Source: a virus
Lineage: Duplodnaviria; Heunggongvirae; Uroviricota; Caudoviricetes
Reading direction: 5' to 3' (one strand)
Length of the DNA stretch: 64,000 nt
IMG/VR virus record: IMGVR_UViG_2541047543_000003
Every line of letters starts with the position of its first letter. Position 1 is the stretch's first letter. The notes under the pieces are model-generated. The model ran no database searches and was not told where the DNA came from. It worked only from the letters and a program-made list of their open reading frames with translations. The position numbers and the translations under genes are program-made. This document shows positions 48,407 to 64,000 of this stretch, in pieces.

Positions 48407-48440
48407 TTACAATTAAATTCAAAATAAAAATTAAGTATTT

Positions 48441-49406: not shown

Positions 49407-49425
49407 CGATTGAGGCTTTTCTTTG

Positions 49426-49501
49426 TAGTGTATCGAAGTGGAATTGAACCACTGACGCAAAGAACTTCAATCTTCCGCTCTACCAACTGAGCTATCGAGG
49501 C
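49426..49501 (-). tRNA. tRNA-Phe(GAA), degenerate
   Basis: Anticodon arm intact; acceptor stem has mismatches at 2:71 and 3:70; 3' end reads CTA. Confidence 0.7.
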
Positions 49502-49506
49502 ATAAT

Positions 49507-49582
49507 TGGAAGCGAGAGAGGGAATCGAACCCCCGACCTCCAGGATATGAACCTGGCAAGCTAACCGCTGCTCTATCTCGCA
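49507..49582 (-). tRNA. tRNA-Met(CAT), initiator-like
   Basis: U1:U72 mismatch, A11:U24, CCAGG-TTCATAT-CCTGG. Confidence 0.85.
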
Positions 49583-49585
49583 AAC

Positions 49586-49662
49586 TGGTGGAGATGGAGA
49601 GAATTGAACTCCCGACATGCAGCCTATGAAACCGCCGCTCTAACCAACTGAGCTACATCTCC
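49586..49662 (-). tRNA. tRNA(CAT), elongator Met or Ile2
   Basis: GCGGT-TTCATAG-GCTGC, CCA end. Confidence 0.85.
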
Positions 49663-49668
49663 AAAATA

Positions 49669-49744
49669 TGGAGCCTAGAGGCGGATTCGAACCCCCGACC
49701 TGCTCATTACAAGTGAGCTGCTCTCCCAACTGAGCTATCTAGGC
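49669..49744 (-). tRNA. tRNA-Thr(TGT)
   Basis: GCTCA-CTTGTAA-TGAGC. Confidence 0.95.
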
Positions 49745-49745
49745 A

Positions 49746-49822
49746 TGGTTCCCCTTGCTGGACTTGAACCAGCGACCTCACCCTTATCAGGGGTGTGCTC
49801 TAACCAACTGAGCTAAAGAGGA
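49746..49822 (-). tRNA. tRNA-Ile(GAT), chimeric with the acceptor stem of the tRNA-Lys type
   Basis: CACCC-CTGATAA-GGGTG in a TCCTCTT/AAGGGGA stem. Confidence 0.9.
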
Positions 49823-49860
49823 ATTATTTCTAAAGCACTCTCGTAAAAGCACTTGAGAAA

Positions 49861-49937
49861 TGGCGGGTGATCTAGGACTTGAACCTAGCACCTGTTGGTT
49901 AACAGCCAACCGCTCTAACCAGATGAGCTAATCACCC
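49861..49937 (-). tRNA. tRNA-Asn(GTT)
   Basis: GTTGG-CTGTTAA-CCAAC, G73. Confidence 0.95.
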
Positions 49938-49943
49938 TAAATC

Positions 49944-50019
49944 TGGAGCCTAGAGGCGGAATCGAACCCCCGACCTGCTCATTACAAGTGAGCTGCTCTC
50001 CCAACTGAGCTATCTAGGC
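49944..50019 (-). tRNA. tRNA-Thr(TGT)
   Basis: Near-identical to 49669. Confidence 0.95.
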
Positions 50020-50020
50020 A

Positions 50021-50097
50021 TGGTTCCCCTTGCTGGACTTGAACCAGCGACCACATGATTAAAAGTCACATGCTCTAACCAACTGAGCTAAAGAGGA
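50021..50097 (-). tRNA. tRNA-Lys(TTT) type A
   Basis: TGTGA-CTTTTAA-TCATG. Confidence 0.93.
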
Positions 50098-50135
50098 ATT
50101 ATTTCTGAAGCACTCTCGTAAAAGCGCTTGAGAAA

Positions 50136-50211
50136 TGGCACTGCCAACGAGGATCGAACTCGTGTTACAAGCTTGAAAGGCTTGTGTCCTAACCAACTAG
50201 ACGATAGCAGC
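50136..50211 (-). tRNA. tRNA-Glu(TTC)
   Basis: CAAGC-CTTTCAA-GCTTG, G73. Confidence 0.93.
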
Positions 50212-50215
50212 GCAA

Positions 50216-50292
50216 TGGTGTGTCGGGCAGGAATCGAACCTGCGACCTACGGGTTAAAAGCCCGTTGCTCTAACCTACTGAGCTAACGACAC
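50216..50292 (-). tRNA. tRNA-Lys(TTT) type B
   Basis: ACGGG-CTTTTAA-CCCGT. Confidence 0.95.
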
Positions 50293-50296
50293 AAAG

Positions 50297-50373
50297 TGGC
50301 GGGTGATCTAGGACTTGAACCTAGCACCTGTTGGTTAACAGCCAACTGCTCTAACCAGATGAGCTAATCACCC
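50297..50373 (-). tRNA. tRNA-Asn(GTT)
   Basis: Copy of the Asn gene. Confidence 0.95.
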
Positions 50374-50379
50374 TAAGTT

Positions 50380-50456
50380 TGGTTCCACCTGCTGGACTTG
50401 AACCAGCGACCACATGATTAAAAGTCACATGCTCTAACCAACTGAGCTAAAGAGGA
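50380..50456 (-). tRNA. tRNA-Lys(TTT), chimeric 3' acceptor strand from tRNA-Ile
   Basis: 5' TCCTCTT with 3' AGGTGGA gives a U4:U69 mismatch. Confidence 0.85.
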
Positions 50457-50494
50457 ATTATTTCTAAAGCACTCTCGTAAAAGCACTTTAGAAA

Positions 50495-50570
50495 TGGCAC
50501 TGCCAACGAGGATCGAACTCGTGTTACAAGCTTGAAAGGCTTGTGTCCTAACCAACTAGACGATAGCAGC
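50495..50570 (-). tRNA. tRNA-Glu(TTC)
   Basis: Copy of the Glu gene. Confidence 0.93.
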
Positions 50571-50574
50571 GCAA

Positions 50575-50651
50575 TGGTGTGTCGGGCAGGAATCGAACCT
50601 GCGACCTACGGGTTAAAAGCCCGTTGCTCTAGCCTACTGAGCTAACGACAC
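50575..50651 (-). tRNA. tRNA-Lys(TTT) type B
   Basis: Copy with one D-loop change. Confidence 0.93.
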
Positions 50652-50655
50652 AAAG

Positions 50656-50732
50656 TGGCGGGTGATCTAGGACTTGAACCTAGCACCTGTTGGTTAACAG
50701 CCAACTGCTCTAACCAGATGAGCTAATCACCC
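50656..50732 (-). tRNA. tRNA-Asn(GTT)
   Basis: Copy of the Asn gene. Confidence 0.95.
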
Positions 50733-50738
50733 TAAGTT

Positions 50739-50814
50739 TGGTTCCACCTGCTGGACTTGAACCAGCGACCTTACCCTTATCAGGGGTATGCTCTACCAAC
50801 TGAGCTAAGGCAGA
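50739..50814 (-). tRNA. tRNA-Ile(GAT)
   Basis: TACCC-CTGATAA-GGGTA. Confidence 0.93.
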
Positions 50815-50821
50815 ATTAAAA

Positions 50822-50897
50822 TGGCGGAGATGACGGGGATTGAACCCGCGACCTCTTGCGTGACAGGCAAGCGTCATAACCACTAGACTACATCTCC
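50822..50897 (-). tRNA. tRNA-Asp(GTC)
   Basis: CTTGC-CTGTCAC-GCAAG, G73. Confidence 0.95.
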
Positions 50898-50902
50898 AAA
50901 TG

Positions 50903-50978
50903 TGGAGCACTGTGGCAGATTTGAACTGCCGAATAATGGATTTGCAATCCACCCTCTTAACCACTTGAGTAACAGTGC
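50903..50978 (-). tRNA. tRNA-Cys(GCA)
   Basis: GTGGA-TTGCAAA-TCCAT, U73. Confidence 0.93.
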
Positions 50979-50979
50979 A

Positions 50980-51055
50980 TGGTGCATCCTACTGGTCTCG
51001 AACCAGTGACCTCTTCTTTGTAAGAGAAGCGCTCTCCCAACTGAGCTAAGGACGC
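50980..51055 (-). tRNA. tRNA-Val(TAC)
   Basis: CTTCT-CTTACAA-AGAAG. Confidence 0.95.
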
Positions 51056-51060
51056 GTAAC

Positions 51061-51136
51061 TGGTGGAGGCAAAGGGAATCGAACCCTCGACAACTGACTT
51101 GCAAAGCCAGCACTCTACCTACTGAGTTATACCCCC
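51061..51136 (-). tRNA. tRNA-Ala(TGC)
   Basis: CTGGC-TTTGCAA-GTCAG, G3:U70. Confidence 0.95.
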
Positions 51137-51140
51137 AAAA

Positions 51141-51216
51141 TGGTGCCTCGAAGTGGAGTTGAACCACTGACGCGAAGATCTTCAATCTTCCGCTCTACCA
51201 ACTGAGCTACCGAGAC
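51141..51216 (-). tRNA. tRNA-Phe(GAA)
   Basis: GAAGA-TTGAAGA-TCTTC, CCA end. Confidence 0.95.
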
Positions 51217-51220
51217 AAAT

Positions 51221-51296
51221 TGGATGCGAGAGAGGGAATCGAACCCCCGACCTCCAGGATATGAACCTGGCAAGCTAACCGCTGCTCTATCTCGCA
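51221..51296 (-). tRNA. tRNA-Met(CAT), initiator-like
   Basis: As 49507 but U1:A72 paired. Confidence 0.88.
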
Positions 51297-51299
51297 AAC

Positions 51300-51376
51300 T
51301 GGTGGAGATGGAGAGAATTGAACTCCCGACATGCAGCCTATGAAACCGCCGCTCTAACCAACTGAGCTACATCTCC
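51300..51376 (-). tRNA. tRNA(CAT), elongator Met or Ile2
   Basis: Copy of 49586. Confidence 0.85.
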
Positions 51377-51382
51377 AAAATA

Positions 51383-51458
51383 TGGAGCCTAGAGGCGGAT
51401 TCGAACCCCCGACCTGCTCATTACAAGTGAGCTGCTCTCCCAACTGAGCTATCTAGGC
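51383..51458 (-). tRNA. tRNA-Thr(TGT)
   Basis: Copy of the Thr gene. Confidence 0.95.
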
Positions 51459-51459
51459 A

Positions 51460-51536
51460 TGGTTCCCCTTGCTGGACTTGAACCAGCGACCACATGATTA
51501 AAAGTCACATGCTCTAACCAACTGAGCTAAAGAGGA
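51460..51536 (-). tRNA. tRNA-Lys(TTT) type A
   Basis: Copy of 50021. Confidence 0.93.
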
Positions 51537-51574
51537 ATTATTTCTGAAGCACTCTCGTAAAAGCACTTGAGAAA

Positions 51575-51650
51575 TGGCACTGCCAACGAGGATCGAACTC
51601 GTGTTACAAGCTTGAAAGGCTTGTGTCCTAACCAACTAGACGATAGCAGC
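51575..51650 (-). tRNA. tRNA-Glu(TTC)
   Basis: Copy of the Glu gene. Confidence 0.93.
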
Positions 51651-51654
51651 GCAA

Positions 51655-51731
51655 TGGTGTGTCGGGCAGGAATCGAACCTGCGACCTACGGGTTAAAAGC
51701 CCGTTGCTCTAACCTACTGAGCTAACGACAC
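51655..51731 (-). tRNA. tRNA-Lys(TTT) type B
   Basis: Copy of 50216. Confidence 0.95.
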
Positions 51732-51735
51732 AAAG

Positions 51736-51812
51736 TGGCGGGTGATCTAGGACTTGAACCTAGCACCTGTTGGTTAACAGCCAACTGCTCTAACCAGATG
51801 AGCTAATCACCC
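51736..51812 (-). tRNA. tRNA-Asn(GTT), first gene of the array
   Basis: GTTGG-CTGTTAA-CCAAC. Confidence 0.95.
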
Positions 51813-52008
51813 ATAATTTATAAGACAACTAAAATCTAATTGCCTTATAAATTATTTTTATCTCTAAAAATAATTCAAGGTCGCCTTGGTTGCAAATCAA
51901 ACTATTCCATTAAATTTGGGTGAAATGGTGTTGATTTAGCGACCTAACCCGAATCAAGATTACAAACATTTATATTTATATTCTCAATCCGAATTTTACA
52001 ATCCAAGT

Positions 52009-52020
52009 TGTTAAAGAACA
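52009..52020 (-). promoter_or_regulatory. boxA-like antitermination element
   Basis: TGTTCTTTAACA on the minus strand, one mismatch to rrn boxA TGCTCTTTAACA, directly after the attenuator U-tract. Confidence 0.65.
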
Positions 52021-52115
52021 AAAAAGCCCAGTGAAACTTAAGGAAGTCTCACTGGGCTAATCATAGCTTATGTGTAGTTTGAGACTTCCGCCTCAACCAC
52101 TTTTAAGTATGAGGC
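52020..52115 (-). terminator. attenuator B (proximal): mutually exclusive hairpins plus intrinsic terminator
   Basis: S1 GCCTCA 52110-52115; S2 TTGAGGC 52090-52096; S3 GGAAGTCTCA 52080-52089; antiterminator partner TGAGACTTCC 52042-52051; 13-bp terminator with U-tract 52020-52058. Confidence 0.85.
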
Positions 52116-52118
52116 AAA

Positions 52119-52244
52119 TCAAGTTGTAATTTCGATCTTATTATCCACGTTCATTTTTTTCGCACAGCAAATATCAGCCGCAATTGCGTTAAACATCGCA
52201 TCGCACTTCTCAATTTTTACTGTCGTAAATGTCGTGATAAACAT
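52119..52244 (-). CDS. leader peptide B, 41 aa: MFITTFTTVKIEKCDAMFNAIAADICCAKKMNVDNKIEITT
   Basis: RBS AGGATTTTATT-ATG; uses exactly the 11 amino acids of the downstream tRNA array; stop codon directly before attenuator B. Confidence 0.85.
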   Translation of the reverse strand: MFITTFTTVKIEKCDAMFNAIAADICCAKKMNVDNKIEITT

Positions 52245-52276
52245 AATAAAATCCTGATAAATGGTTTTTTTAATAC

Positions 52277-52369
52277 AAAAAAGTCAGCTTAGCTATCGCC
52301 TCGCTGACTCTATACAAGAAAATCTTGAAATCTTTGAGGCAACCCTCAAAGATACAAATATCCTGAAGG
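52277..52369 (-). terminator. attenuator A (distal)
   Basis: S1 CCTTCAGGATA 52359-52369; S2 TATCTTTGAGG 52344-52354; S3 TTGCCTCAAAGA 52331-52342; terminator AGTCAGC..GCTGACT plus U-tract 52277-52309 containing GAGGCGA, complementary to S3. Confidence 0.75.
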
Positions 52370-52370
52370 T

Positions 52371-52475
52371 TTAAATATTGTTTTTACAGTCAAATTTCTT
52401 GTCTGTATTCTTCTCACAGGCAAACATATTGTCTGTGTTTGTTTCAATCGTATTTTTAGCGATGATGATAAACAT
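52371..52475 (-). CDS. leader peptide A, 34 aa: MFIIIAKNTIETNTDNMFACEKNTDKKFDCKNNI
   Basis: CAGGT RBS; uses only 10 of the 11 array amino acids and none outside that set. Confidence 0.8.
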   Translation of the reverse strand: MFIIIAKNTIETNTDNMFACEKNTDKKFDCKNNI

Positions 52476-52535
52476 AACATTACCTGTGAGTTAAAAAGTA
52501 GTTTAAGTGTTAGGCTCTTGCCTTCCGATGAGTTA

Positions 52536-52565
52536 ATAATAAACCTAAATGTTTTTTCAAGTCAA
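52536..52565 (-). promoter_or_regulatory. sigma70-type promoter of the leader A / leader B / tRNA array transcript
   Basis: TTGACT-18-TATTAT on the minus strand. Confidence 0.55.
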
Positions 52566-52641
52566 CACTTAATTTTATCTTTTTTATGTTTTTTTGGTTA
52601 AAAAAAGAAAGAGGGCTTAAAAACCCTCTTTATTCAATCAC

Positions 52642-53742
52642 TTACAAAACTTTATTTTTTGCGTTTTTTTCACCAAACTTATAGTTTTTCAACTTGAAGT
52701 TGTTTTGTAGTCGCTCTTCCAACACTCCCTCGTCATTAAAAACTAACTCTTTCCCTTCATAATACCAGGTAGATGTTCCACCTATTGGTTGAGAAAGATC
52801 ATATTTAACCGATGGGTCAAACAACTTATAAGGATTAAATCTGGTAGATTTTGAATGCTCAGTGCGGTCAAATTGATAGTTGTATTCTACTCTTTCTGGC
52901 GCACCTAGAGAAAGAAACACTTCAACCTTGTTCATACCATAATTAATTTCGCTAGACTTAATGCTGGAGTGGTGAGCCTTATGGACTAAAGGAGACTTCA
53001 ACGGATCTTTGTATACAATTCTATTGATATCAAAAGGAACATTTACCCTTTCACCATCGTCAAGCCTAACCACAAAACTAAACTGTGATTCATCTAATCC
53101 ATACCCCGTATTTAACGAGTAATCAATTTTTTCAACTTTTAGGGGTTGGTTATGCGGTACTCTAATGGTATCAGAGCTGTTCGTTCCATATACTGAGGTA
53201 TTTGTTTTATCAGCTCCTCGCCCTAAGACATAAATCGCCTTACCCGCATGTTCTTCAGCGGCTTTCAAGTCTGAATTATGGATTAACTGTAGTTGTGATT
53301 GCATTTGTCTAAATGGAAAAACACCATCCCTATCATCATTATTCTTATCAAATACTGATGCAAAATTTCCGAATTCAGGAATAACCACTTCAATGGATTT
53401 ACAATTATCCAAAACACCAGAATAAACACGATAGTGTCTAAGCTTACCAGGCTCATTAGGATCTTCATCTGTTTTTTGAATAAAACTAGTTGTATCGATT
53501 TTTAAATCACGACCATAAATATCTGATTCGGTTAGAGGTGTCTTTTGATATCTTTCATACAAGTATGAATAAGAGTCTTGAGGAAGATTATTCATTCTAT
53601 TATTGAACTTGAGTTCGGCAGAGACATTCCCCGCTTCGAACTCAAGCCCACGAATAACTTTGTAATTGCATTCGCTTGCGAATGCTGTAGATGAGATGAC
53701 GCCAATAGCTAGGGCTATAGTCGTTTTCAGAAATTTATTCAT
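52642..53742 (-). CDS. secreted hypothetical protein
   Basis: Signal peptide ...STAFA; C-terminal GMNKVEVFLSLGAPERV...WYY (SmpA/BamE-like pattern). Confidence 0.7.
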   Translation of the reverse strand: MNKFLKTTIALAIGVISSTAFASECNYKVIRGLEFEAGNVSAELKFNNRMNNLPQDSYSYLYERYQKTPLTESDIYGRDLKIDTTSFIQKTDEDPNEPGKLRHYRVYSGVLDNCKSIEVVIPEFGNFASVFDKNNDDRDGVFPFRQMQSQLQLIHNSDLKAAEEHAGKAIYVLGRGADKTNTSVYGTNSSDTIRVPHNQPLKVEKIDYSLNTGYGLDESQFSFVVRLDDGERVNVPFDINRIVYKDPLKSPLVHKAHHSSIKSSEINYGMNKVEVFLSLGAPERVEYNYQFDRTEHSKSTRFNPYKLFDPSVKYDLSQPIGGTSTWYYEGKELVFNDEGVLEERLQNNFKLKNYKFGEKNAKNKVL

Positions 53743-53800
53743 TGAATTACCCGTTTATTATTAATTTGAGTAATATAATGGCATAAATAAACTTCCAATT

Positions 53801-54607
53801 CTAGGAATTAATAACCAACTCTATTCTTTTTTGCATATCTAAAGAAACGTTGATGCCGTTACACTGTAACATGTTCATCATATCTCTGATTAGCAATACC
53901 GCATCACTTTCCACCTTGTCTGAAGATGTAATAACTTCACTATCAATCTCAGTATCAGGAGAAAGGTCTGTTACGGTACAGGAGAAAGCTGTAGCAAGCT
54001 TAATTAGTAATTCATTATTTACAGGAGCTTTACCATTAATAATTTGGGAGAAACCCGCTTGCGTTTTGAGTCCAAGCTTTGACTGACAGAATTCTTGTTG
54101 AGTCATACCTGTCATATCTTGGTATTCCTGCCATCTCATTTTAATGTTTTTAGCTACCTTTTTCATTTTTTCTGAGCTTAAACCACATTCACTTGAGCGC
54201 TTTTCTTTTAAGAAGCTTTTAAACTCTGCATGATTGAAATCATACTTGATCATTTGAGGCTCAACATCCAGTCCAGAAGCAATTTTATCAATTACACTAT
54301 CACCGAGCGGAAGTGTGCCTTTTAAATAGGCTGAGAAGTTTGAAGTAGTAGTCCAACCAATGCTTTTACAAAAAGTGCTACGTGTAATATTTTCCCTTTC
54401 TGAATATTGCTCCCAAAGAAGATTTAAGCTTTCTCTGGCTTTATCCTGAATTTTTGATTCAATAAGTGACGCTGAATCAGACTTACTCAGGTACAATGCA
54501 TTTAAGATAGAGTCTACTGAACGATTTGTAGACATTTTATTCTCTTTTATTAGAAAATCTTTTACTTCACCACTTTGTATTGCTAAAGCTTTCATTAAAT
54601 TCACCAA
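53801..54607 (-). CDS. transcriptional regulator with two Cro/CI-like HTH domains
   Basis: ITRSTFCKSIGWTTTSNFSAYLKG...KIASGL and MTQQEFCQSKLGLKTQAGFSQIING...KLATAF. Confidence 0.75.
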   Translation of the reverse strand: MVNLMKALAIQSGEVKDFLIKENKMSTNRSVDSILNALYLSKSDSASLIESKIQDKARESLNLLWEQYSERENITRSTFCKSIGWTTTSNFSAYLKGTLPLGDSVIDKIASGLDVEPQMIKYDFNHAEFKSFLKEKRSSECGLSSEKMKKVAKNIKMRWQEYQDMTGMTQQEFCQSKLGLKTQAGFSQIINGKAPVNNELLIKLATAFSCTVTDLSPDTEIDSEVITSSDKVESDAVLLIRDMMNMLQCNGINVSLDMQKRIELVINS

Positions 54608-54670
54608 TCTCTTTAATTAATTAATTAATTAATAAATATTTATTCGTTATTCATTTTAAATTTTTGGGGG

Positions 54671-55135
54671 TTAGTACGGTAGATCGTCTTTGTATTCGAA
54701 CATATTCTCCCCATCTCTCAACGGGTTTTGTTGTTGATATTCTCGATAGTCAGATTGCTGAGTCTGGTATCGTTGCTGTTGCCCTGCTGTATTGCGTAGT
54801 GCTTTTGATTCATTAATGTATTTAGCACCAAGAACAACTTTCATATCAATTTGGTTGCAAGAAAATCCAAGACCTACAAATATATCTGTATTTATTAAGT
54901 AATGCTTTCCAGATAGTGTGACAATGGCACCTATCCCTATAAGCCCTTCTTTTATTACGTTTTCAAGGCTATTTCTGTTCGGAGAAAAAATATTGCACTG
55001 ATACCATTGATCTACAGACCGACCATTAATGAAGTCATTGACACAAACTGGAACTTTTATAAAGTATCCATTTTTCCCTTGTTTTATTTCTGGGTGCTTT
55101 CCAATTCTACCTAATATTACTGTATTCTGAGACAT
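54671..55135 (-). CDS. ssb: single-stranded DNA-binding protein-like
   Basis: VILGRIGKHPEIK, QWYQC, GAIVTLSGK; Q-rich linker; acidic tip YKDDLPY. Confidence 0.7.
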   Translation of the reverse strand: MSQNTVILGRIGKHPEIKQGKNGYFIKVPVCVNDFINGRSVDQWYQCNIFSPNRNSLENVIKEGLIGIGAIVTLSGKHYLINTDIFVGLGFSCNQIDMKVVLGAKYINESKALRNTAGQQQRYQTQQSDYREYQQQNPLRDGENMFEYKDDLPY

Positions 55136-55434
55136 TAATTACCTACTGCATTAACTAATTGTAATTTAATTGGCTCATGTTTCTCTTCAATCTTTTGGAT
55201 TTCACTAATCATGCTAAGAAGCTCAACAGATTCACTTCTTAAGGTTTTAGGTACACCTTTAGATTGAATAAGTAGGTTTTTAATTAAATCAGAAGATTCA
55301 ACCAACAGGTCATTAAAAAGCTGAGCCTTTTCACTATCAGTTAATAATGATAAAAAATTGCCTATTTCATTGATGCTGGCTTTACCTGAGTTAGTCTCAG
55401 AGATGCTGCTCACTAGCCTTAACTTATTGTCCAT
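55135..55434 (-). CDS. hypothetical protein
   Basis: 99-aa ORF coupled to the ssb-like gene. Confidence 0.6.
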   Translation of the reverse strand: MDNKLRLVSSISETNSGKASINEIGNFLSLLTDSEKAQLFNDLLVESSDLIKNLLIQSKGVPKTLRSESVELLSMISEIQKIEEKHEPIKLQLVNAVGN

Positions 55435-55591
55435 ATTAAATATTTACTTTGATTTTTTGATGCTTTAGAGCATTATAACGAGATAAATATTTTCTGCAAC
55501 CCCCTGATATAAAAATTATTATATGCATTCTTGTGCTCAGTATACATAAAATGATAAAATATAATCAGTTAAACAATAATAAAGGCAAAAA

Positions 55592-56287
55592 ATGATGACA
55601 AGCTCAAAAAACACAATCATAGCTAAGCTAAGCACCACGCAATCAAACGTGAGAAGTGTTCGTATCAATGTGCATCCAAAATACAATGAGACAGACTCTG
55701 GATATCCAATAACGATTTACGAAACGCTAAACAGTAGAAATCTACCACCACAGAAAGCATTTCTAAATCTTAAGGTTGGAGGAAAGGATCAATGGCTATC
55801 TATTAGCACATCAGCTCGCGCAACAAATGAGAATGGTGAGTACAAGCTAGCACCAAAGAGGAATGAACAAGGCTGTCTTGTAAATAGAAAAGGCGATGTT
55901 GTTCAAACTGAAGAAGAAGCAGCAAGATCTTTTATTTATGAAAAAGAAGATGGTCGTAGCTTTAACATAGAGCTAGGTACATTATCTATTCAAAATACAA
56001 ACTCTGAGGGTCAGCAGACCAAATGCACTCTGATTAAAGCTAAACTTTACAGCGATAAAGAAGCTATTGCTATCCGACAAATGATGAAGGAAGCTAAAAA
56101 TGCTCCTGAAGAGTACAGGCAGGCGCAATATGATAAGATTTCCGATTACAAGCGTAATCATGGTGACTGGAAAACCTTATTTATTTCAGAAGGTCATGAT
56201 TTCCTGAGAGGTTTAGGGTTTGAAGTAAGAGAAAACGTTCCTAAAAACCAACCTGGTAATGACTATAAAGATGACATTCCCTTCTAA
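55592..56287 (+). CDS. hypothetical protein with SSB-type C-terminal tip
   Basis: Ends NDYKDDIPF. Confidence 0.75.
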   Translation: MMTSSKNTIIAKLSTTQSNVRSVRINVHPKYNETDSGYPITIYETLNSRNLPPQKAFLNLKVGGKDQWLSISTSARATNENGEYKLAPKRNEQGCLVNRKGDVVQTEEEAARSFIYEKEDGRSFNIELGTLSIQNTNSEGQQTKCTLIKAKLYSDKEAIAIRQMMKEAKNAPEEYRQAQYDKISDYKRNHGDWKTLFISEGHDFLRGLGFEVRENVPKNQPGNDYKDDIPF

Positions 56288-56330
56288 TGATTATTATAGC
56301 GAATAAAAAAAGACTGCATTGCAGTCTTTT

Positions 56331-57074
56331 TTACATCGCCAGTGATGAAATTCGATTGTCTTTTTTCTTTTTTGTTTTTAACTCGTAGACATTTCTTTTA
56401 TCTATTGTTACCACATTACCGACATTAGCATCTATTTTAGCAAGATCTTCTGTTGTACAAAACATCCAGTCCATATGGTCTTCTTCAATTTGCATGAGTC
56501 CTTTAGAAGAGTACCATTTAAGAAGCTTTTCTCTGCTTTTTTCAGGATTCATTCCTAATGTTCGATACTGGTACGAAGAGCTTAGGTGAGAGCATAGCTG
56601 TAATGGACAAGCTTGAAGCACCATTAAACCAAAGCTTTCCCCGTAGTGCTCAGGGAAAAATTTCAGCAAATATTCACCAAAACCTTTACCCAAAAACCTT
56701 GGCTTAACTTTTAATTCCTTAATAAATATTACATTTCTTTTTATTTCTTTATTTGAATTCTCTAAATGAGATTTAACAGAATCATGAAATTCCAGATCTA
56801 ACTCGTTTGTTCTGTAATCGTAAGTATTATACTTAGAAAGCCATGAGAATGCAGTGGAGAACTCACTATCTGCTGAAGCTGACCTAGACATCACTGATAG
56901 AGAATTCCCTTCTACTAGTAATTTTTCCAGTTCAAAGCACAAAAATTCCACTTCGCAAACCACTTCACCTGTTCCATTTTGCATAAGCTGCGCAACATTA
57001 TTGGTGAGATACCCGTAACTATTTCGAACCTCTGACAAAACAGTAAGCTCTATTTTATTCAAAATGCTTTTCAT
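56331..57074 (-). CDS. GNAT-like protein
   Basis: IKELKVKPRFLGKGFGEYLL (motif A), LLKWYSSKGL. Confidence 0.65.
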   Translation of the reverse strand: MKSILNKIELTVLSEVRNSYGYLTNNVAQLMQNGTGEVVCEVEFLCFELEKLLVEGNSLSVMSRSASADSEFSTAFSWLSKYNTYDYRTNELDLEFHDSVKSHLENSNKEIKRNVIFIKELKVKPRFLGKGFGEYLLKFFPEHYGESFGLMVLQACPLQLCSHLSSSYQYRTLGMNPEKSREKLLKWYSSKGLMQIEEDHMDWMFCTTEDLAKIDANVGNVVTIDKRNVYELKTKKKKDNRISSLAM

Positions 57075-57102
57075 GAATTTATTTATTAATGATTTAAAGT
57101 TT

Positions 57103-57606
57103 TTACTTTTTCAAATAGTCAGAAAATGTTAGTTTTTCAGTTTTTCCTGACGTTGACCAATTTAGAACCCACTTTTCTGAATCTATAATAGGAAAGAAGG
57201 TATCAGCATTCTCAACAACCTCATCAACAACAGTAATCAACAATCGATCTGCTATTGAAATCGATTCTTTATATATCATACCTCCGCCAATAACAAGTAA
57301 TTCTTGGAAATTATTATCGCTATAAACCTTTGTTATTGCTTCTTGAATTGAACTTACGCCGCAAACTGTTGTAAACCCTTTATCTGAAAAAAAACTCTTA
57401 TCCTTTTCACTACAAAGAACAAAGTTGTCTCTATTTTTAAGAGGTGCTGAATTGGGCAAAGAACGAGCAGTCCTTGCCCCCATGATGACGGGCTTGTGTA
57501 GGGTATGGGTCTTGAAAAACTCCATATCTTCTCTGAATGAGAACAGTAAATCATTCCCTTTTCCAATTGCTAAATTTTTAGACACACAAGCGATTAGCGT
57601 TATCAT
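57103..57606 (-). CDS. folA: dihydrofolate reductase
   Basis: LIACVSKNLAIG, EDMEFFK, PVIMGARTARSLP, PLKNRDN, VIGGGMIY, DTFFP. Confidence 0.93.
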   Translation of the reverse strand: MITLIACVSKNLAIGKGNDLLFSFREDMEFFKTHTLHKPVIMGARTARSLPNSAPLKNRDNFVLCSEKDKSFFSDKGFTTVCGVSSIQEAITKVYSDNNFQELLVIGGGMIYKESISIADRLLITVVDEVVENADTFFPIIDSEKWVLNWSTSGKTEKLTFSDYLKK

Positions 57607-58028
57607 TCAATAACCACTCCCTGGTAGTTACTAATTGCATACAGTTGTGTGCCAAGATTATTTTTCTTAATCTCTTTTTTTAGTGATTCTGTTATTTCAG
57701 CACTATAAGCAAATTTACCATTGTAATAAACGTAAGCCCTACCTTGGAACTCATAGGTTAAAATTAACCCCTTAACAGTACCTAACTCCCCAACACCATC
57801 ATGATAATTTAGCATACCAGATGAATCACTATACATTTTTTCATATACTGATATGTTTTCGTAGTCGCCATTTGTTCTAACTTCAAAGTCTGAAATGGAT
57901 AATGCTGCACTTGATAAAAACACTCGGTTTGACAGTCCCGTTAACTCTTTATATTTTGGGTCTGCAAATGAGCTAGTTGAAGCTGTCATAAGCACAATAC
58001 CAGCTATCATCATGTGTTTAAGTTTCAT
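57603..58028 (-). CDS. secreted hypothetical protein
   Basis: Signal peptide ...TSSFA. Confidence 0.65.
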   Translation of the reverse strand: MKLKHMMIAGIVLMTASTSSFADPKYKELTGLSNRVFLSSAALSISDFEVRTNGDYENISVYEKMYSDSSGMLNYHDGVGELGTVKGLILTYEFQGRAYVYYNGKFAYSAEITESLKKEIKKNNLGTQLYAISNYQGVVIE

Positions 58029-58233
58029 TATTATTATTCTCCAATAGTTGTTTTCTTAGTTGTTCTACCTGGTTTATTCTTTCTCTTAACGTTTTATCAA
58101 TGTCTAATGTCTCAGATAATAATGGAGCTACTATATCCACATCTGGATTAGTCATGTTTTTTTCAAATTCTTTATGAATTTCATCTAATCGATTCGATAG
58201 CTTTGAGTAATTTGTTTGTTCTAAACCTGACAT
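58018..58233 (-). CDS. xseB: exonuclease VII small subunit-like
   Basis: Directly downstream of xseA; NYSKLSNRLDEI...PLLSE...LRERINQVE. Confidence 0.6.
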   Translation of the reverse strand: MSGLEQTNYSKLSNRLDEIHKEFEKNMTNPDVDIVAPLLSETLDIDKTLRERINQVEQLRKQLLENNNNET

Positions 58234-58283
58234 TTACTTATTCCTTACATTAGTAAAACAGAATATTACATTCCGTTCAATAT

Positions 58284-59795
58284 TTAATCTTGCTTGCTTA
58301 ATTCGATTCTAGGAAACTCTCGAACTTTTTCAATTTGGTTAATATCAACTCGCACGATACCATCAGACAAGCTCAGTTTAGCTTCGCCTTCTTTTAGATC
58401 ATTCACGCTAGTAACAAGTGTTTCATCCTGGTTAACTAATGAGTATCCCTTATTTAAGATAGCAATAGGGTTGTTCATCATAATCATGATTAGCTTTTCT
58501 TTACGAATATTATCCGCTGAAACAAGAGTGTCTTTTGATATCGAAGATATAGATGTGATTTTTTGGTCAAGAGCGTTTCTTGCTCTCTCAATCACGACTG
58601 CACTGTTATCAATAATTCTTGACACCTTACTGTCCAATGCGCTTTTAGCAAGCAATACGCTTTTTTCGGACAAGCTTATGATCCGTTCGAAATTTCGAGC
58701 ATCCTTCTCTGATGATGAAATGATTACATCTCTAATCATATTTACGACCATCGAAGGTGTTGCACATCTGGTATGTGCAATTTCATCTATAATTGTATTG
58801 TCTCTTTCATGCCCGATACCGCAGAATATCGGCGCATTAAGACATAGCAGCGATTTAGCTATTTCATACTCATTTAAGGCATATAAACCTGCTTTATCAC
58901 CACCACCACGAATCACACATACCGCATCGAATGGATTTCTTTCATGATCAGCATTTATCTTACTCACTGCTGAAGTGATCGTGTTTATGGAGTTATTCCC
59001 CTGGAAAGTTGCAGAATAATAACTGAATTTACATAGACCTAAACTATCCAAAAGTGATGATTGCGTCTGAAAGTCACCCAAGCCAGCAGCCATATCTGGA
59101 GATAGAACTGCAACTCTGAAAAAGTTATTTGGTGCCTTCATTCTCTTGTTGTTAAGAAATATTCCCTCAGATCTTAATCTATCTCTAATTGCATTTAGCT
59201 TTGCTTCCATCTCACCTATAGTAAATGATGGGTTGATATCAATGATGTTCAGACTTAAGCCGTACTTCTCGCTGAACTCAGGTTTTACACAGATAAGAAC
59301 CTTCATGTTATGAGCCAGCTTCATGCCTGTTGAACACTCAAATTTGCTTATAATGTCTTTTCTCTTGCTCCAAATCATACCTCTAGCTTTCGCCAATTCA
59401 GAGCCATTCGAATCATAATCAGAAAGCTCTAGGTACACATGTGAGTTACCAGTAATATTTGAAATTTCAGCAGTAAGCCATGAGCCTTCAGTGAAGGTTT
59501 CTTCCATGAGGTTTTTAATTACACCCAAATATACTGACAAGCTCGATGGCTTATTGCTCTGCTTGTTCAGCATATGCTGAAACTTGGGTGTCCACCATTT
59601 CTTGAAAGCGGTAACATCAATGCCTTTTGGTACGTACCAACAAACAAACGCACCATTACTTGAGTAAGGTAAAGCACCTAGTCTTTTTGCTTCTTCACGC
59701 TCCCCAAATGGGACTTCGAGCCGTAATTTTCTGTCTAGAATCATTGAAATCTCCATTTTTGGTAAATTATACATGAAATCTATCCTGTAAACCAC
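58284..59795 (-). CDS. xseA: exonuclease VII large subunit with N-terminal DUF5710-like extension (start may be ~59756)
   Basis: LEVPFGEREEAKRLGA...WYVP; WLTAEISN..G.SHVYLEL, FDAVCVIRGGG, GIGHERD.TIID.IA....TPS, ILNKGYS. Confidence 0.92.
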   Translation of the reverse strand: MVYRIDFMYNLPKMEISMILDRKLRLEVPFGEREEAKRLGALPYSSNGAFVCWYVPKGIDVTAFKKWWTPKFQHMLNKQSNKPSSLSVYLGVIKNLMEETFTEGSWLTAEISNITGNSHVYLELSDYDSNGSELAKARGMIWSKRKDIISKFECSTGMKLAHNMKVLICVKPEFSEKYGLSLNIIDINPSFTIGEMEAKLNAIRDRLRSEGIFLNNKRMKAPNNFFRVAVLSPDMAAGLGDFQTQSSLLDSLGLCKFSYYSATFQGNNSINTITSAVSKINADHERNPFDAVCVIRGGGDKAGLYALNEYEIAKSLLCLNAPIFCGIGHERDNTIIDEIAHTRCATPSMVVNMIRDVIISSSEKDARNFERIISLSEKSVLLAKSALDSKVSRIIDNSAVVIERARNALDQKITSISSISKDTLVSADNIRKEKLIMIMMNNPIAILNKGYSLVNQDETLVTSVNDLKEGEAKLSLSDGIVRVDINQIEKVREFPRIELSKQD

Positions 59796-59909
59796 TGATG
59801 ATTATAATCAATTGATAAATTATCAATTTTTATCTTTCATACTATATGCTTTTGATGTAGCATTGGTCATTCTTTTAATAAGCTAATAAATATCAAGAGT
59901 AAATAGAAA

Positions 59910-60722
59910 ATGAGCGATAAGTTAAATAAAAAAATCCAAAAACTAAACCTGAAGAAAGATCCAGTAATAATCGACCTGGTTAAGAAAACCGCAATCTCGT
60001 TAGAGAAGAAAGGTATTAATCTGGACAAGGACGCTGCCCGAGTTGCTTTGTGCATGGACTTCTCAGGCAGTATGTATTGGCTAATTAAGAACGGTACTGT
60101 CAGTGAGTTAACACAACGTTCATTGGCTCAAGGGATCGTTATGGATGATGATGGTGATATTGAAGTCTTTGGTTTTGGTTCTGATGCAAAGTACATTGAA
60201 TCCATCAACTCCGACAACTATGTGGAGTACTGTGAGGGTGTTCAGCGAGACATGCCAGATTTCGGTTCAACCTATTACCATAAAGCAATTAATCTAATTG
60301 TAAGTCATTATGACCGCATTGGTTATGATAAACCTGTCTATGTCATTTTCGTAACTGATGGTGATACCTTCAGCAAAACTGCAACTGAGGAAGCACTAAA
60401 GTCCGCTTCAGGCAAGCCAATCTTCTGGCAGTTCATTGGTATTGGTCAAGATGACTACGATCCTAATCAGGTAGATGCCAAAGTTGTGAAGAAACCTGGA
60501 GTAATCGGTCGTTTCCTTGGCGCTAAAGAAAAAGAAGTTCCTAACACTAAGTTTGAGTTCTTAGTTAAACTTGATGAAATGGAAGGTCGCGTGGTAGATA
60601 ATGCTGGATTCTTTGCTGTAAAAGATCCTAAAAGCATGAGTGCTGAGCGCATGTATGATTTGATGCACAATGAATACCCAGAGTGGCTTAAAGAAGTACG
60701 AGCTAAAGGCATTCTTCGCTAA
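59910..60722 (+). CDS. vWA-domain protein (TerF/TerY-associated type)
   Basis: LCMDFSGSM (MIDAS), FVTDGD, PIFWQFIGIG, DNAGFF. Confidence 0.88.
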   Translation: MSDKLNKKIQKLNLKKDPVIIDLVKKTAISLEKKGINLDKDAARVALCMDFSGSMYWLIKNGTVSELTQRSLAQGIVMDDDGDIEVFGFGSDAKYIESINSDNYVEYCEGVQRDMPDFGSTYYHKAINLIVSHYDRIGYDKPVYVIFVTDGDTFSKTATEEALKSASGKPIFWQFIGIGQDDYDPNQVDAKVVKKPGVIGRFLGAKEKEVPNTKFEFLVKLDEMEGRVVDNAGFFAVKDPKSMSAERMYDLMHNEYPEWLKEVRAKGILR

Positions 60723-60787
60723 TTTGTAGATTTAAGCGAACAAAAAGACATGGGGAAGCCCATGTCTTTTTTTATTTCAGTTAATAA

Positions 60788-61312
60788 TTACATTTCAATA
60801 TTGTAAAGCAAAGCCATCTCACCCAGACCCACAACCAACATTTTGTTTTCAAAAATCCTGATAGGGAAAACCTGACCCTCCTTTGTCTGAATGGTATAAC
60901 TGGCGCTATTAGGTAATTCAATTTGCTCTTGGGTGATTTCAGTTATGTTAAAAACCTTGGTTTCTAGTTGAATCTTCTCATTTGATAATTGAATTGCAGG
61001 AGGTAAGCCAAGCTGTGTTTTACCTATTACCATACTATGCGGCTTGAATGAGACTCCAGATTCAGAACTATTAAATGGATTCACAACTACTTGTTGAGCA
61101 ACTACTTGTTGAGATTTTGCGCTAATTGCTATATCTTCATCATTTCTAAATCCATTAAAAAATGCAATTGCTACAAATATATAAAGCACAATAAATGGCA
61201 AACTTGTTATTTGCTCAATAAATACTAACTTTGGGCTTAGTTTCCGTTCCTCTGGTGATGCGCAATCTTCAAAATGACAAAATTTTATTTTATTTTTCAT
61301 AGGTACACTCAT
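60788..61312 (-). CDS. hypothetical membrane-anchored protein
   Basis: Single TM segment. Confidence 0.6.
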   Translation of the reverse strand: MSVPMKNKIKFCHFEDCASPEERKLSPKLVFIEQITSLPFIVLYIFVAIAFFNGFRNDEDIAISAKSQQVVAQQVVVNPFNSSESGVSFKPHSMVIGKTQLGLPPAIQLSNEKIQLETKVFNITEITQEQIELPNSASYTIQTKEGQVFPIRIFENKMLVVGLGEMALLYNIEM

Positions 61313-61805
61313 GTTTAGAATTTGTATGTTATTTTTATTAATTTCTTCTGTTAGCTTCCCTGTCTATCCGCACACTCAAACCAAAGACAAAATTCTAGTA
61401 ATTAAGTCAGAAAGAGTATTACTACTACTGAAAAACAATAAAATTGCTAAAGAGTACAAGATCGCTCTGGGAAAGAATCCTGTCGGAGACAAAGTAAAAC
61501 AAGGAGATAATAAAACACCAGAGGGTAAATATCAAATTGTCAGTAAGAACAGTCAGAGTAAATTTTATCTTAATTTGGCAATAAACTACCCATCTAAGTT
61601 GGATATTAAAGAAGCAAAAAGTCTAGGCGTTAATCCAGGCGGTAATATTGTTATTCATGGCTTACCCAACAAAGCTCCTAGCTTTATTCACGATGAATTA
61701 ATGAGCGAAGACTGGACAAATGGTTGCATAGCTTTACATAACAGAGATATTAAGGATTTGTTTGATTCAGTTCCTGTCGGAACAAGTATCGATATTCTTC
61801 CTTGA
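61311..61805 (+). CDS. L,D-transpeptidase (YkuD) family protein
   Basis: GDKVKQGDNKTPEG, IVIHG, WTNGCIAL. Confidence 0.9.
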   Translation: MFRICMLFLLISSVSFPVYPHTQTKDKILVIKSERVLLLLKNNKIAKEYKIALGKNPVGDKVKQGDNKTPEGKYQIVSKNSQSKFYLNLAINYPSKLDIKEAKSLGVNPGGNIVIHGLPNKAPSFIHDELMSEDWTNGCIALHNRDIKDLFDSVPVGTSIDILP

Positions 61806-61892
61806 CTCTTAGTCTTTGTTTTTTAAAGGTCTTTTAAATTGAATGAACATGCATTAGACATAATCTATTAATGTGGTAAAATTTGCGCCGTT

Positions 61893-62618
61893 TTGACATA
61901 CGACTACGGGTTCCATATGCGCACTTTTGAAGAGATCGGAAATATAGCGATAAATGCATTGCTATCTTATCATTGCTCCCCTGAAAGAATGAAAGTTTCA
62001 AAAGAAGCTACAGTTAGACTGTATCTTAAGAAAGCGCTATCTCGAAAAAAGTACAGCAAAAATTCATGTTATTACCTAAAGTCACTCCTACAAAAAGCTA
62101 CATCATCCTACTCAATGTATAATGTTTTAAGTGGAATTGCTGAAAACTACACTAAAGTCATATCTCATGATAAGAAATTTGATGACATTTGCTTTTACGA
62201 TAGATTTCAATCTTTATTTAAGAAGATGCGTGATCTTGGTTATGAGCTGCATATAGACATTGAAGGTGATTCACTGTTTCTAAACGAAAACAGTAAAGCT
62301 ATGGTGATTTTCAAAAATGACTATATCAATTTAGAACCGTCTGGTGATCTTACTGGAGTTCTTTATGTCACTGTAGTTAATAAATGTATGTATGATTTTA
62401 TTGAATCAGCATTTAACTCAGGTCTATACCCAAAACTCTTCAAAGAGAGTAGTAACGTTAGTAAATTTGAGATTCATCCTAACAACAACCCACCAGCACC
62501 AATTTCATTTATTTCTACAAAGGAAGATTATCTTCATAAACGCCGAGTTATGGCTAATGAGAAATCATTATTTGCTGGCAAGGTAAACCCGTTCCAGTTA
62601 AAAATGAAGAAATCCTAA
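61893..62618 (+). CDS. hypothetical protein
   Basis: 241-aa ORF. Confidence 0.6.
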   Translation: MTYDYGFHMRTFEEIGNIAINALLSYHCSPERMKVSKEATVRLYLKKALSRKKYSKNSCYYLKSLLQKATSSYSMYNVLSGIAENYTKVISHDKKFDDICFYDRFQSLFKKMRDLGYELHIDIEGDSLFLNENSKAMVIFKNDYINLEPSGDLTGVLYVTVVNKCMYDFIESAFNSGLYPKLFKESSNVSKFEIHPNNNPPAPISFISTKEDYLHKRRVMANEKSLFAGKVNPFQLKMKKS

Positions 62619-62626
62619 ATTTTCTG

Positions 62627-62656
62627 TTGACTTTCCTAGACCAAGAATTATAAGCT
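62627..62656 (+). promoter_or_regulatory. sigma70-type promoter of leader C
   Basis: TTGACT (62627) with TATAAG/TAAGCT at 16/18 nt. Confidence 0.55.
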
Positions 62657-62690
62657 TTAATTGTAAACATACATTTTTAAGGATTTTATT

Positions 62691-62759
62691 GTGAAAGCTA
62701 AAACATTTATTACCTCTAAAGTAGGTATCCAGCAACCGTGGCAACAAGCTTATGTGTAA
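62691..62759 (+). CDS. leader peptide C, 22 aa: MKAKTFITSKVGIQQPWQQAYV
   Basis: RBS AGGATTTTATT-GTG (identical to leader B); CAG CAA CCG TGG CAA CAA block matches the downstream Pro/Gln/Trp tRNAs. Confidence 0.85.
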   Translation: MKAKTFITSKVGIQQPWQQAYV

Positions 62760-62845
62760 GTTTTAGCTTTCGCATGGCTAAAACTTAGGTTTTAGCCACA
62801 GGAAAGACACCTAACCCCTGATGGCTCTCCATCAGGGGTTTTTTT
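62760..62845 (+). terminator. attenuator C
   Basis: S1 GTTTTAGC 62760-62767; S2 GGCTAAAAC 62776-62784; S3 GTTTTAGCC 62789-62797; antiterminator AGCCA-CAGG 62794-62802 with CCTG-A-TGGCT 62817-62826; terminator ACCCCTGATGG/CCATCAGGGGT plus U7. Confidence 0.85.
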
Positions 62846-62963
62846 ATGCTTAAAAAATTCAGGTGGAATGAAGTCAACTTATCTCTGCATATCTATGCTG
62901 GAGGGGGTTCTTATGGTTTTGGTGTAAGTGCATGATTTTATTGAAATTTTTTTAATTTTCTTG

Positions 62964-62992
62964 TTGACAGATAAAATGTTCAGGTTTAATAT
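62964..62992 (+). promoter_or_regulatory. near-consensus sigma70 promoter directly upstream of the Pro/Gln/Trp array
   Basis: TTGACA-17-TAATAT. Confidence 0.65.
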
Positions 62993-63016
62993 GTAGTCAT
63001 ACAGTAAAGAAACACA

Positions 63017-63093
63017 CGGTGAATAGCGCAGCCTGGTAGCGCATCTGCTTTGGGAGCAGAGGGTCGAGAGTTCGAATCTCTCTTCACCGACCA
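63017..63093 (+). tRNA. tRNA-Pro(TGG)
   Basis: TCTGC-TTTGGGA-GCAGA. Confidence 0.96.
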
Positions 63094-63104
63094 AATTACA
63101 TTGT

Positions 63105-63181
63105 TGGGGTGTAGCCAAGTTGGTTTAAGGCAATAGACTTTGATTCTATGATCGGGGGTTCGAGTCCCTCCACCTCAGCCA
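63105..63181 (+). tRNA. tRNA-Gln(TTG)
   Basis: ATAGA-CTTTGAT-TCTAT, U1:A72, G73. Confidence 0.95.
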
Positions 63182-63193
63182 GAACAACAAAGT

Positions 63194-63268
63194 GTAGAGG
63201 TAGCTCAGTTGGTAGAGCCTCGGATTCCAAACCCGATGACGGGGGTTCGATTCCCTCCCTCTATGCCA
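63194..63268 (+). tRNA. tRNA-Trp(CCA)
   Basis: TCGGA-TTCCAAA-CCCGA (31:39 mismatch), G73. Confidence 0.9.
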
Positions 63269-63272
63269 CACT

Positions 63273-63349
63273 CGGTGAATAGCGCAGCCTGGTAGCGCAT
63301 CTGCTTTGGGAGCAGAGGGTCGAGAGTTCGAATCTCTCTTCACCGACCA
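63273..63349 (+). tRNA. tRNA-Pro(TGG)
   Basis: Second unit of the 256-bp repeat. Confidence 0.96.
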
Positions 63350-63360
63350 AATTACATTGT

Positions 63361-63437
63361 TGGGGTGTAGCCAAGTTGGTTTAAGGCAATAGACTTTGAT
63401 TCTATGATCGGGGGTTCGAGTCCCTCCACCTCAGCCA
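63361..63437 (+). tRNA. tRNA-Gln(TTG)
   Basis: Second unit. Confidence 0.95.
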
Positions 63438-63449
63438 GAACAACAAAGT

Positions 63450-63524
63450 GTAGAGGTAGCTCAGTTGGTAGAGCCTCGGATTCCAAACCCGATGACGGGG
63501 GTTCGATTCCCTCCCTCTATGCCA
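63450..63524 (+). tRNA. tRNA-Trp(CCA)
   Basis: Second unit. Confidence 0.9.
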
Positions 63525-63528
63525 CACT

Positions 63529-63605
63529 CGGTGAATAGCGCAGCCTGGTAGCGCATCTGCTTTGGGAGCAGAGGGTCGAGAGTTCGAATCTCTCTTCACC
63601 GACCA
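63529..63605 (+). tRNA. tRNA-Pro(TGG)
   Basis: Third unit. Confidence 0.96.
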
Positions 63606-63616
63606 AATTACATTGT

Positions 63617-63693
63617 TGGGGTGTAGCCAAGTTGGTTTAAGGCAATAGACTTTGATTCTATGATCGGGGGTTCAAGTCCCTCCACCCCAGCCA
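63617..63693 (+). tRNA. tRNA-Gln(TTG)
   Basis: Third unit, two substitutions relative to the other copies. Confidence 0.95.
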
Positions 63694-64000
63694 TATTCCT
63701 TTCTGATTCTAAGAGGTTTTTATGTCATATAATAATTATTGTCTAATCATGAAATGCTTAGATATTATTGAGAAAGAATTAAAGAATATTGCTGCAAATG
63801 TTGGTCATCCATCATTCAATGAATTCATGAGAGGAAAGTGCGATGAATGAAGATAAAATGATTCATACCTTGAAAGAATGTTGTTTTTAATCAGAACTCT
63901 GAACACATTACTAAAAAGAAAACTTGGATAATGGTTATTCCCCAGATCTTCGTATCTGGGGTTATTTGCTTAGCTATTGCAATAGAAATATATCCTCAAT

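Follow-up and report, generated by a model that had tools for sequence, protein, structure and literature searches.

Positions 62627-63693 of IMG/VR virus record IMGVR_UViG_2541047543_000003 (Caudoviricetes), a stretch of 64,000 nucleotides (nt) that we call the window, raise the question of why a 22-codon open reading frame (ORF) with Gln, Pro and Trp codons clustered near its end, followed by an intrinsic terminator, should precede an array of tRNA-Pro(UGG), tRNA-Gln(UUG) and tRNA-Trp(CCA) genes. The window belongs to a plasmid family of about 0.9 Mb, of which four complete members, from Vibrio vulnificus and Vibrio parahaemolyticus, carry the leader region with 97-98% identity. We consider it likely that the segment is a ribosome-mediated transcription attenuator of the trp type, which gates read-through into the array from a promoter-like site, P1, and from the upstream operon. 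Judging from the sequence, the plasmid would probably make more of these tRNAs when ribosomes read Gln, Pro or Trp codons slowly. A preliminary description of this DNA had proposed a leader-peptide attenuator matched to the downstream tRNAs, and that reading is supported here by a model of ribosome positions, by parallel arrays on the same plasmid family and by conservation.

The leader ORF (62691-62759, + strand) has 22 codons and a stop, starts with GTG and encodes the peptide MKAKTFITSKVGIQQPWQQAYV. It is led by the Shine-Dalgarno sequence AAGGA (62679-62683) with a 7-nt spacer to the start codon. As the preliminary description had pointed out, and as translation confirms, its Gln, Pro and Trp codons are confined to one block, CAG CAA CCG TGG CAA CAA (QQPWQQ, 62730-62747, codons 14-19), three codons ahead of the TAA. 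All six block codons can be read by the anticodons UUG, UGG and CCA, with CAG and CCG decoded via U34 wobble. The window has 1420 six-frame ORFs of 12 or more amino acids, with a background Pro+Gln+Trp fraction of 0.065; of all these, the leader ORF has the longest run composed only of the three residues (6; the runner-up has 4), and no second run of six or more occurs anywhere in the six-frame translation of the window. The arrangement is that of a leader-peptide attenuator: the control codons cluster in the distal part of the leader, and a ribosome-binding site and short ORF lie directly 5' of a terminator, with 53 nt between the stop codon and the terminator stem.

The leader RNA is strongly structured (z = -6.67 for the fold of 62680-62850 against 200 shuffles) and its segments have competing partners. 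S1 (62760-62773), which the stop codon abuts directly, can pair either with S0 (62691-62704), a segment that holds the start codon and is complementary to S1 over 14 base pairs (bp), or with S2 (62775-62784). S2 can also pair with S3 (62789-62798), which overlaps the 5' strand of the antiterminator, AGCCACAGG (62794-62802), the two together spanning 62789-62802. Since 62794-62798 is common to S2:S3 and to the antiterminator, these helices are mutually exclusive. The 3' strand of the antiterminator, CCTGATGGCT (62817-62826), is in turn part of the 5' arm and loop of the intrinsic terminator (hairpin 62813-62840, T tract 62839-62845), which has a 12-bp stem, a 4-nt loop and seven U. Computed energies are -24.1 kcal/mol for the S0:S1 hairpin, -8.7 kcal/mol for S1:S2 (8 bp), -13.1 kcal/mol for S2:S3 (10 bp), -10.9 kcal/mol for the antiterminator hairpin (9 bp with one bulge) and -20.5 kcal/mol for the terminator hairpin. 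In ribosome-free RNA the S0:S1 hairpin is present and occludes the start codon. The antiterminator pairing and the length of S1:S2 agree with those given in the preliminary description; its S2:S3 helix and its terminator with seven U also stand, each being one pair longer than the 9 and 11 bp counted there. The motif GTTTTAGC occurs seven times in the window, and four of its copies fall within 62697-62796 in alternating orientation.

Under smooth translation, a ribosome that reaches the stop codon would cover S1; S2:S3 would then form and sequester the AGCCA of the antiterminator strand, the terminator would fold and transcripts would end near 62845. A ribosome waiting on the block for Gln-, Pro- or Trp-tRNA would leave S1 free to pair with S2; S3 and its extension would pair with the terminator 5' arm and loop, and the polymerase would continue through the spacer into the tRNA genes. 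If the leader is not translated, S0:S1 and S2:S3 would form together, giving termination with the start codon hidden. Slow decoding of the codons that the array itself serves would in this way add array transcription to a basal supply from a second promoter-like site, P2, and the feedback would act on tRNA supply, not on amino-acid synthesis.

Constrained folding locates the predicted switch at the end of the codon block. In this model the RNA is cut at 62828, before the terminator 3' arm, and all RNA up to the leading edge of the ribosome is masked. With the A site on any codon of the block, the antiterminator has a probability of 0.83-0.98 for assumed footprint edges of P+11 to P+15; for edges of P+16 and P+17, its probability at the last Gln codon is 0.89 and 0.54, respectively. 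Within 0-2 codons past the block it drops to 0.03 or less. QQPWQQ would, on this model, take up the farthest positions at which a ribosome can stall without occluding S1. The antiterminator covers the loop-proximal part of the terminator 5' arm and two loop bases, leaving four bases at the stem foot that pair with the last-synthesized portion of the terminator 3' arm; displacement of the antiterminator from there would be expected to come too late to halt the polymerase. The claim in the preliminary description that the switch logic is complete was overstated, the 14-bp S0:S1 helix having been overlooked.

The same model gives the antiterminator also for ribosomes stalled at nearly every earlier codon, provided that the upstream RNA is covered. 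The attenuator could thus be real and act as a general sensor of translation, responding whenever amino acids run short or ribosomes slow down or are lost, without specificity for the three tRNAs, and it may then chiefly limit transcription into the array. Such a role would fit the established inability of hungry codons in trp-type attenuators to separate lack of an amino acid from lack of its tRNA, and also the S0:S1 helix, which makes the outcome depend on ribosome loading. We find it unlikely, on two grounds. Extra tRNA gives no relief from amino-acid starvation, so that a strict match of leader and array, seen at three arrays (see below), would be hard to explain. In addition, the Pro-Trp codons (ACCGUGGCA) are able to pair with the antiterminator strand (-11.4 kcal/mol), and this pairing would abolish read-through after early-codon stalls and so confer positional specificity on the block.

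Codon-matched leaders are found at further arrays of the same plasmid family. The - strand of the window carries an array of 28 tRNA genes for Phe, Met, Thr, Ile, Asn, Lys, Glu, Asp, Cys, Val and Ala. Just upstream of it lie leader A (52371-52475, - strand, 34 amino acids) and leader B (52119-52244, - strand, 41 amino acids), both spelled solely in the amino acids of this array; no other run of these 11 residues in the window is as long (34 and 41, against 22 for the next). Leader B bears out the earlier mention of an independent second case with a different tRNA set. The 11 nt that precede it are the same as those 5' of the GTG of the Pro/Gln/Trp leader (AGGATTTTATT), its stop codon lies 3 nt ahead of segment 1, and it is followed by a 15-bp terminator (52058-52025, - strand) with a candidate antiterminator, the 10-bp perfect pairing of GGAAGUCUCA with UGAGACUUCC. 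The sequence TGTTCTTTAACAA at 52020-52008 (- strand), which shares bases with the U tract that ends this terminator, matches the rrn boxA consensus at 12 of 13 positions; no similar motif is present 3' of the Pro/Gln/Trp leader terminator.

A third array is found on the sister plasmid NZ_CP015514.1, which has 84 tRNA matches, and it consists exclusively of Leu, Ser, Tyr and His tRNA genes. The region ahead of it (734170-734691) contains a promoter-like site and the tandem mini-ORFs MKMLHSYLHLSYLSLYN (L1) and MSYLSHLHYSLSYSLLST (L2), which are composed almost wholly of Leu, Ser, Tyr and His, sample in their codons most isoacceptors of the array and are each followed by a terminator. The second of these terminators ends 44 nt before the first tRNA gene with no promoter-like site in between. 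The amino-acid sets of the three arrays (11, 3 and 4) do not overlap. In each of the five leaders an upstream segment is complementary to the terminator 5' arm (shuffle p of 0.018, 0.029, 0.121, 0.135 and 0.028); for A, B, L1 and L2 the helices are resolved as far as these antiterminator candidates. The scattered single tRNA genes for Arg, Met, Gly, Ser, Asn and Lys, which serve as an internal control, have their own P2-like promoters and no matched leader. Ahead of the tRNA-Arg(ACG) and tRNA-Arg(UCU) genes, which have separate promoters, lies an ORF that closes with three different Arg codons (AGA CGT AGG) just short of its stop codon; it has no clear terminator and may be a coincidence. Ribosome-free folds of the Pro/Gln/Trp leader (62680-62773), of leader B (52253-52120, - strand) and of L1, the first Leu/Ser/Tyr/His leader, have a long-range helix in which a segment further 3' hides the ribosome-binding site or the start codon. 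Such helices may commonly serve to make termination the default and to silence leader RNA once it is released.

Conservation was assessed across several Vibrio species, in 12 copies of the plasmid. The leader and attenuator have two variable columns in 203 nt, one giving V22M in the peptide of the V. cholerae plasmid and the other affecting one T of the U tract, against 24 variable columns in the 93 nt of the spacer that follows (62863-62955, Fisher p = 1.6e-11). The end of the upstream gene together with P1 has 10 variable columns in 100 nt, and the interval from P2 to the first tRNA gene has five in 61 nt, none of them in the hexamers. Apart from V22M the leader peptide is invariant, and QQPWQQ is identical in 12 of 12 copies; the preliminary description had named lack of conservation of this block in homologues as an observation that would speak against it. 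Leader B varies more: six different substitutions are seen in its peptide (I>T, D>N, K>E, A>V, A>T and C>F), all six within its 11-residue set (p = 0.03). Leader A shows one change inside the set and one outside it (N>S near the stop codon); in NZ_CP015514.1 leader A has one Ser codon (AGC) three codons before the stop, one exception to the rule that the leader uses only amino acids found in its array.

Searches of plasmid and phage collections found the three leader regions solely in the four near-identical Vibrio megaplasmids, and the Pro-Gln-Trp tRNA unit gave no further full-length match. The neighbour gene of the leader is present also in assemblies labelled V. cholerae, V. antiquarius and other Vibrio; the neighbouring 233-residue protein has no relative in species genomes and makes up one 90% cluster of the protein collection. 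Nine metagenome matches to a degenerate leader-peptide pattern were discarded as chance, none of the nine being near a tRNA. The cultured, tRNA-rich Xanthomonas phage XacN1, an unrelated jumbo phage, was also considered as a further case and rejected: its cluster of tRNA genes for Pro (two), Thr, Trp and Gln (two) has no matched leader ORF upstream.

Promoter-like sites flank the leader and attenuator on both sides. P1 (TTGACT-16-TATAAG, 62627-62654, + strand) has hexamers that are invariant in the 12 copies. It is a weaker point of the scheme, as its -10 hexamer has G in place of the conserved last T and the site is absent from the list given by a consensus promoter scan. P2 (TTGACA-17-TAATAT, 62964-62992, + strand), which the preliminary description had already placed at 62964, lies after the spacer and 25 nt ahead of the first tRNA gene; its hexamers are likewise invariant across the 12 copies, with variable bases next to them. 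The array (63017-63693, + strand) is made of two Pro(UGG)-Gln(UUG)-Trp(CCA) units followed by Pro-Gln, and holds only the three tRNA species listed in the earlier account. Its copy number varies among plasmids, from Pro-Gln alone to three Pro-Gln-Trp units plus Pro-Gln; in all variants the first gene is Pro and the last is Gln, and two plasmids have an additional 100-157 nt separating the first Pro and Gln genes. Past the array, on the + strand, come a 42-codon ORF (63722-63850), which may share a transcript with the tRNAs and is an annotated gene in the V. cholerae plasmid, and a terminator-like hairpin (63940-63961).

The locus is represented in eight RNA-seq runs of two studies, and four of them were examined as assembled contigs from unperturbed cultures, in which depth figures and uncovered parts amount to a weak hint and not to firm evidence. 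In all four runs, drawn from the two studies, the contigs over the upstream gene and leader end at 62810-62818, a weak indication in itself. The leader contig has a depth of 170 against 5.3 for the sole spacer contig (62869-63036), and the contig over leaders A and B is the deepest of the stretch (676-871). The gene-bearing 7 kb at 52858-59805 have no RNA contig in any of the four runs and both leader regions are deep; the silence between the two loci indicates that the signal is RNA and not DNA carry-over. The contigs hint at efficient termination with a few per cent of read-through in culture. The spacer contig crosses P2 into tRNA-Pro, and some array transcripts therefore come from upstream.

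The seeming abundance of the leader RNA relative to its neighbours, its strong structure and the burial of its start codon in the mature fold would also suit a stable small RNA of about 185 nt, extending from P1 to the terminator and having a function of its own, with the ORF incidental. This seems highly improbable to us: the RNA matches no Rfam family, the codon match is repeated in five leaders of unrelated sequence, and the stop codon abuts S1 here and stands close to segment 1 in leader B, as attenuators require.

Several results weigh against attenuation of the array. Taken alone, the antiterminator duplex of the Pro/Gln/Trp leader is not exceptional, being equalled in 121 of 1000 shuffles (p = 0.12). 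In the full-length RNA at equilibrium the terminator always folds, and the switch must therefore be kinetic, like those of known attenuators. When only the stalled ribosome is masked and S0 is left free, S0:S1 and S2:S3 form and termination is predicted; read-through would thus need S0 to be occupied by a trailing or initiating ribosome, or its pairing with S1 to be kinetically excluded. For leaders A, B, L1 and L2, a clear-cut switch is absent from a crude equilibrium profile. The homologues are all close relatives (at least 97% identical) and provide conservation, not covariation. In two runs a single contig, unbroken from 60759 or 60873 to 62811, joins the leader to the upstream genes, and transcription may therefore also enter from that operon. 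Finally, P2 stands between the attenuator and the tRNA genes and could supply most array transcripts; given the conservation of its hexamers, the attenuator can govern only part of array transcription.

These last two points lend themselves to another explanation, in which the hairpin and T tract at 62813-62845 are a mere terminator of the upstream operon (an L,D-transpeptidase gene and the gene of the 233-residue protein), the array is transcribed solely from P2, and the QQPWQQ ORF is a coincidence or a relic. The poor conservation of the spacer and its scarce coverage by RNA agree with this. It leaves unexplained that a run of Pro, Gln and Trp residues unique in the window sits in a Shine-Dalgarno-led ORF ending at S1, that this ORF and all helices are nearly invariant between variable flanks, and that matched leaders are found at two other arrays, one of which has no promoter after its attenuator. 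The contig running across P2 into tRNA-Pro is a further argument against it, and we judge it quite improbable. Our preferred reading remains an attenuator that responds to the decoding of Gln, Pro and Trp codons and acts together with P2.

The element resembles the trpL leader of Escherichia coli in its short Shine-Dalgarno-led ORF with control codons clustered near the end, in the stop codon adjoining the first switching segment, in the exclusive antiterminator and terminator helices, in default termination without translation and in the use of Trp codons as part of the signal. It differs from trpL in that tRNA genes take the place of a biosynthetic operon as targets, codons for three amino acids are combined in the block, a second promoter follows the attenuator, and the 5'-most segment (S0) covers the start codon and not the control codons. 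There is no sequence or Rfam similarity between the two: a scan of 48000-64000 at E <= 1 returned the tRNAs and chance-level matches only, with no Trp, His, Leu or Thr leader and no T-box among them. A PyrR match of 33 bits, against a gathering score of 54, was set aside as chance-level.

Sampling of several amino acids at once is shared with thrL (Thr/Ile) and with the ilvGMEDA leader (Ile/Leu/Val), and leaders A and B, with 11 amino acids, and the Leu/Ser/Tyr/His leaders extend this multivalent principle. In contrast to thrL and ilvGMEDA, the amino-acid set is here defined by the downstream tRNA genes and not by a common pathway. The leader-peptide attenuator of pheST, with its pheM leader, controls a component of translation by the charging of tRNA-Phe; it differs in belonging to a chromosomal synthetase operon and in sensing a single amino acid. 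The dependence of terminator read-through on the state of a specific tRNA recalls T-box riboswitches, which unlike the present element bind uncharged tRNA directly, without a ribosome, and control synthetase and amino-acid genes, mainly in Gram-positive bacteria. The genes behind the attenuator studied here are those of tRNA-Pro, tRNA-Gln and tRNA-Trp alone, and none makes or charges the sensed amino acids, in which the locus departs from classic attenuators.

Control of bacterial tRNA genes is generally placed at their promoters (growth rate, ppGpp/DksA, Fis), and the known cases of leader-peptide attenuation concern amino-acid biosynthesis and a few synthetase operons. In the literature we found no account of leader-peptide control of tRNA genes or of the arrays of this plasmid, nor any confirmation of attenuator-like sequences near the tRNA-Phe genes of E. 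coli. If a leader probes the very codons that its downstream tRNAs decode, the supply of these tRNAs would answer directly to the speed of decoding, and this would also explain how large mobile elements manage their private sets of tRNAs. It is conceivable, though doubtful, that the three regulons, which cover 18 amino acids together, form a demand-driven back-up tRNA system in which each regulon senses the decoding speed of its own codons and is switched on when the host pool fails. If so, phage or toxin anticodon nucleases would be possible triggers, as would the presence of a replicon of 36.5% G+C, the value of the window, in a host of higher G+C. The plasmid is found in cultured strains of V. 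parahaemolyticus, V. vulnificus and V. cholerae with public RNA-seq data, which places these proposals within reach of ordinary experiments. If the back-up reading is true, transcription of tRNA genes would here be coupled naturally, by feedback, to the speed of decoding, in hosts open to genetic tests.

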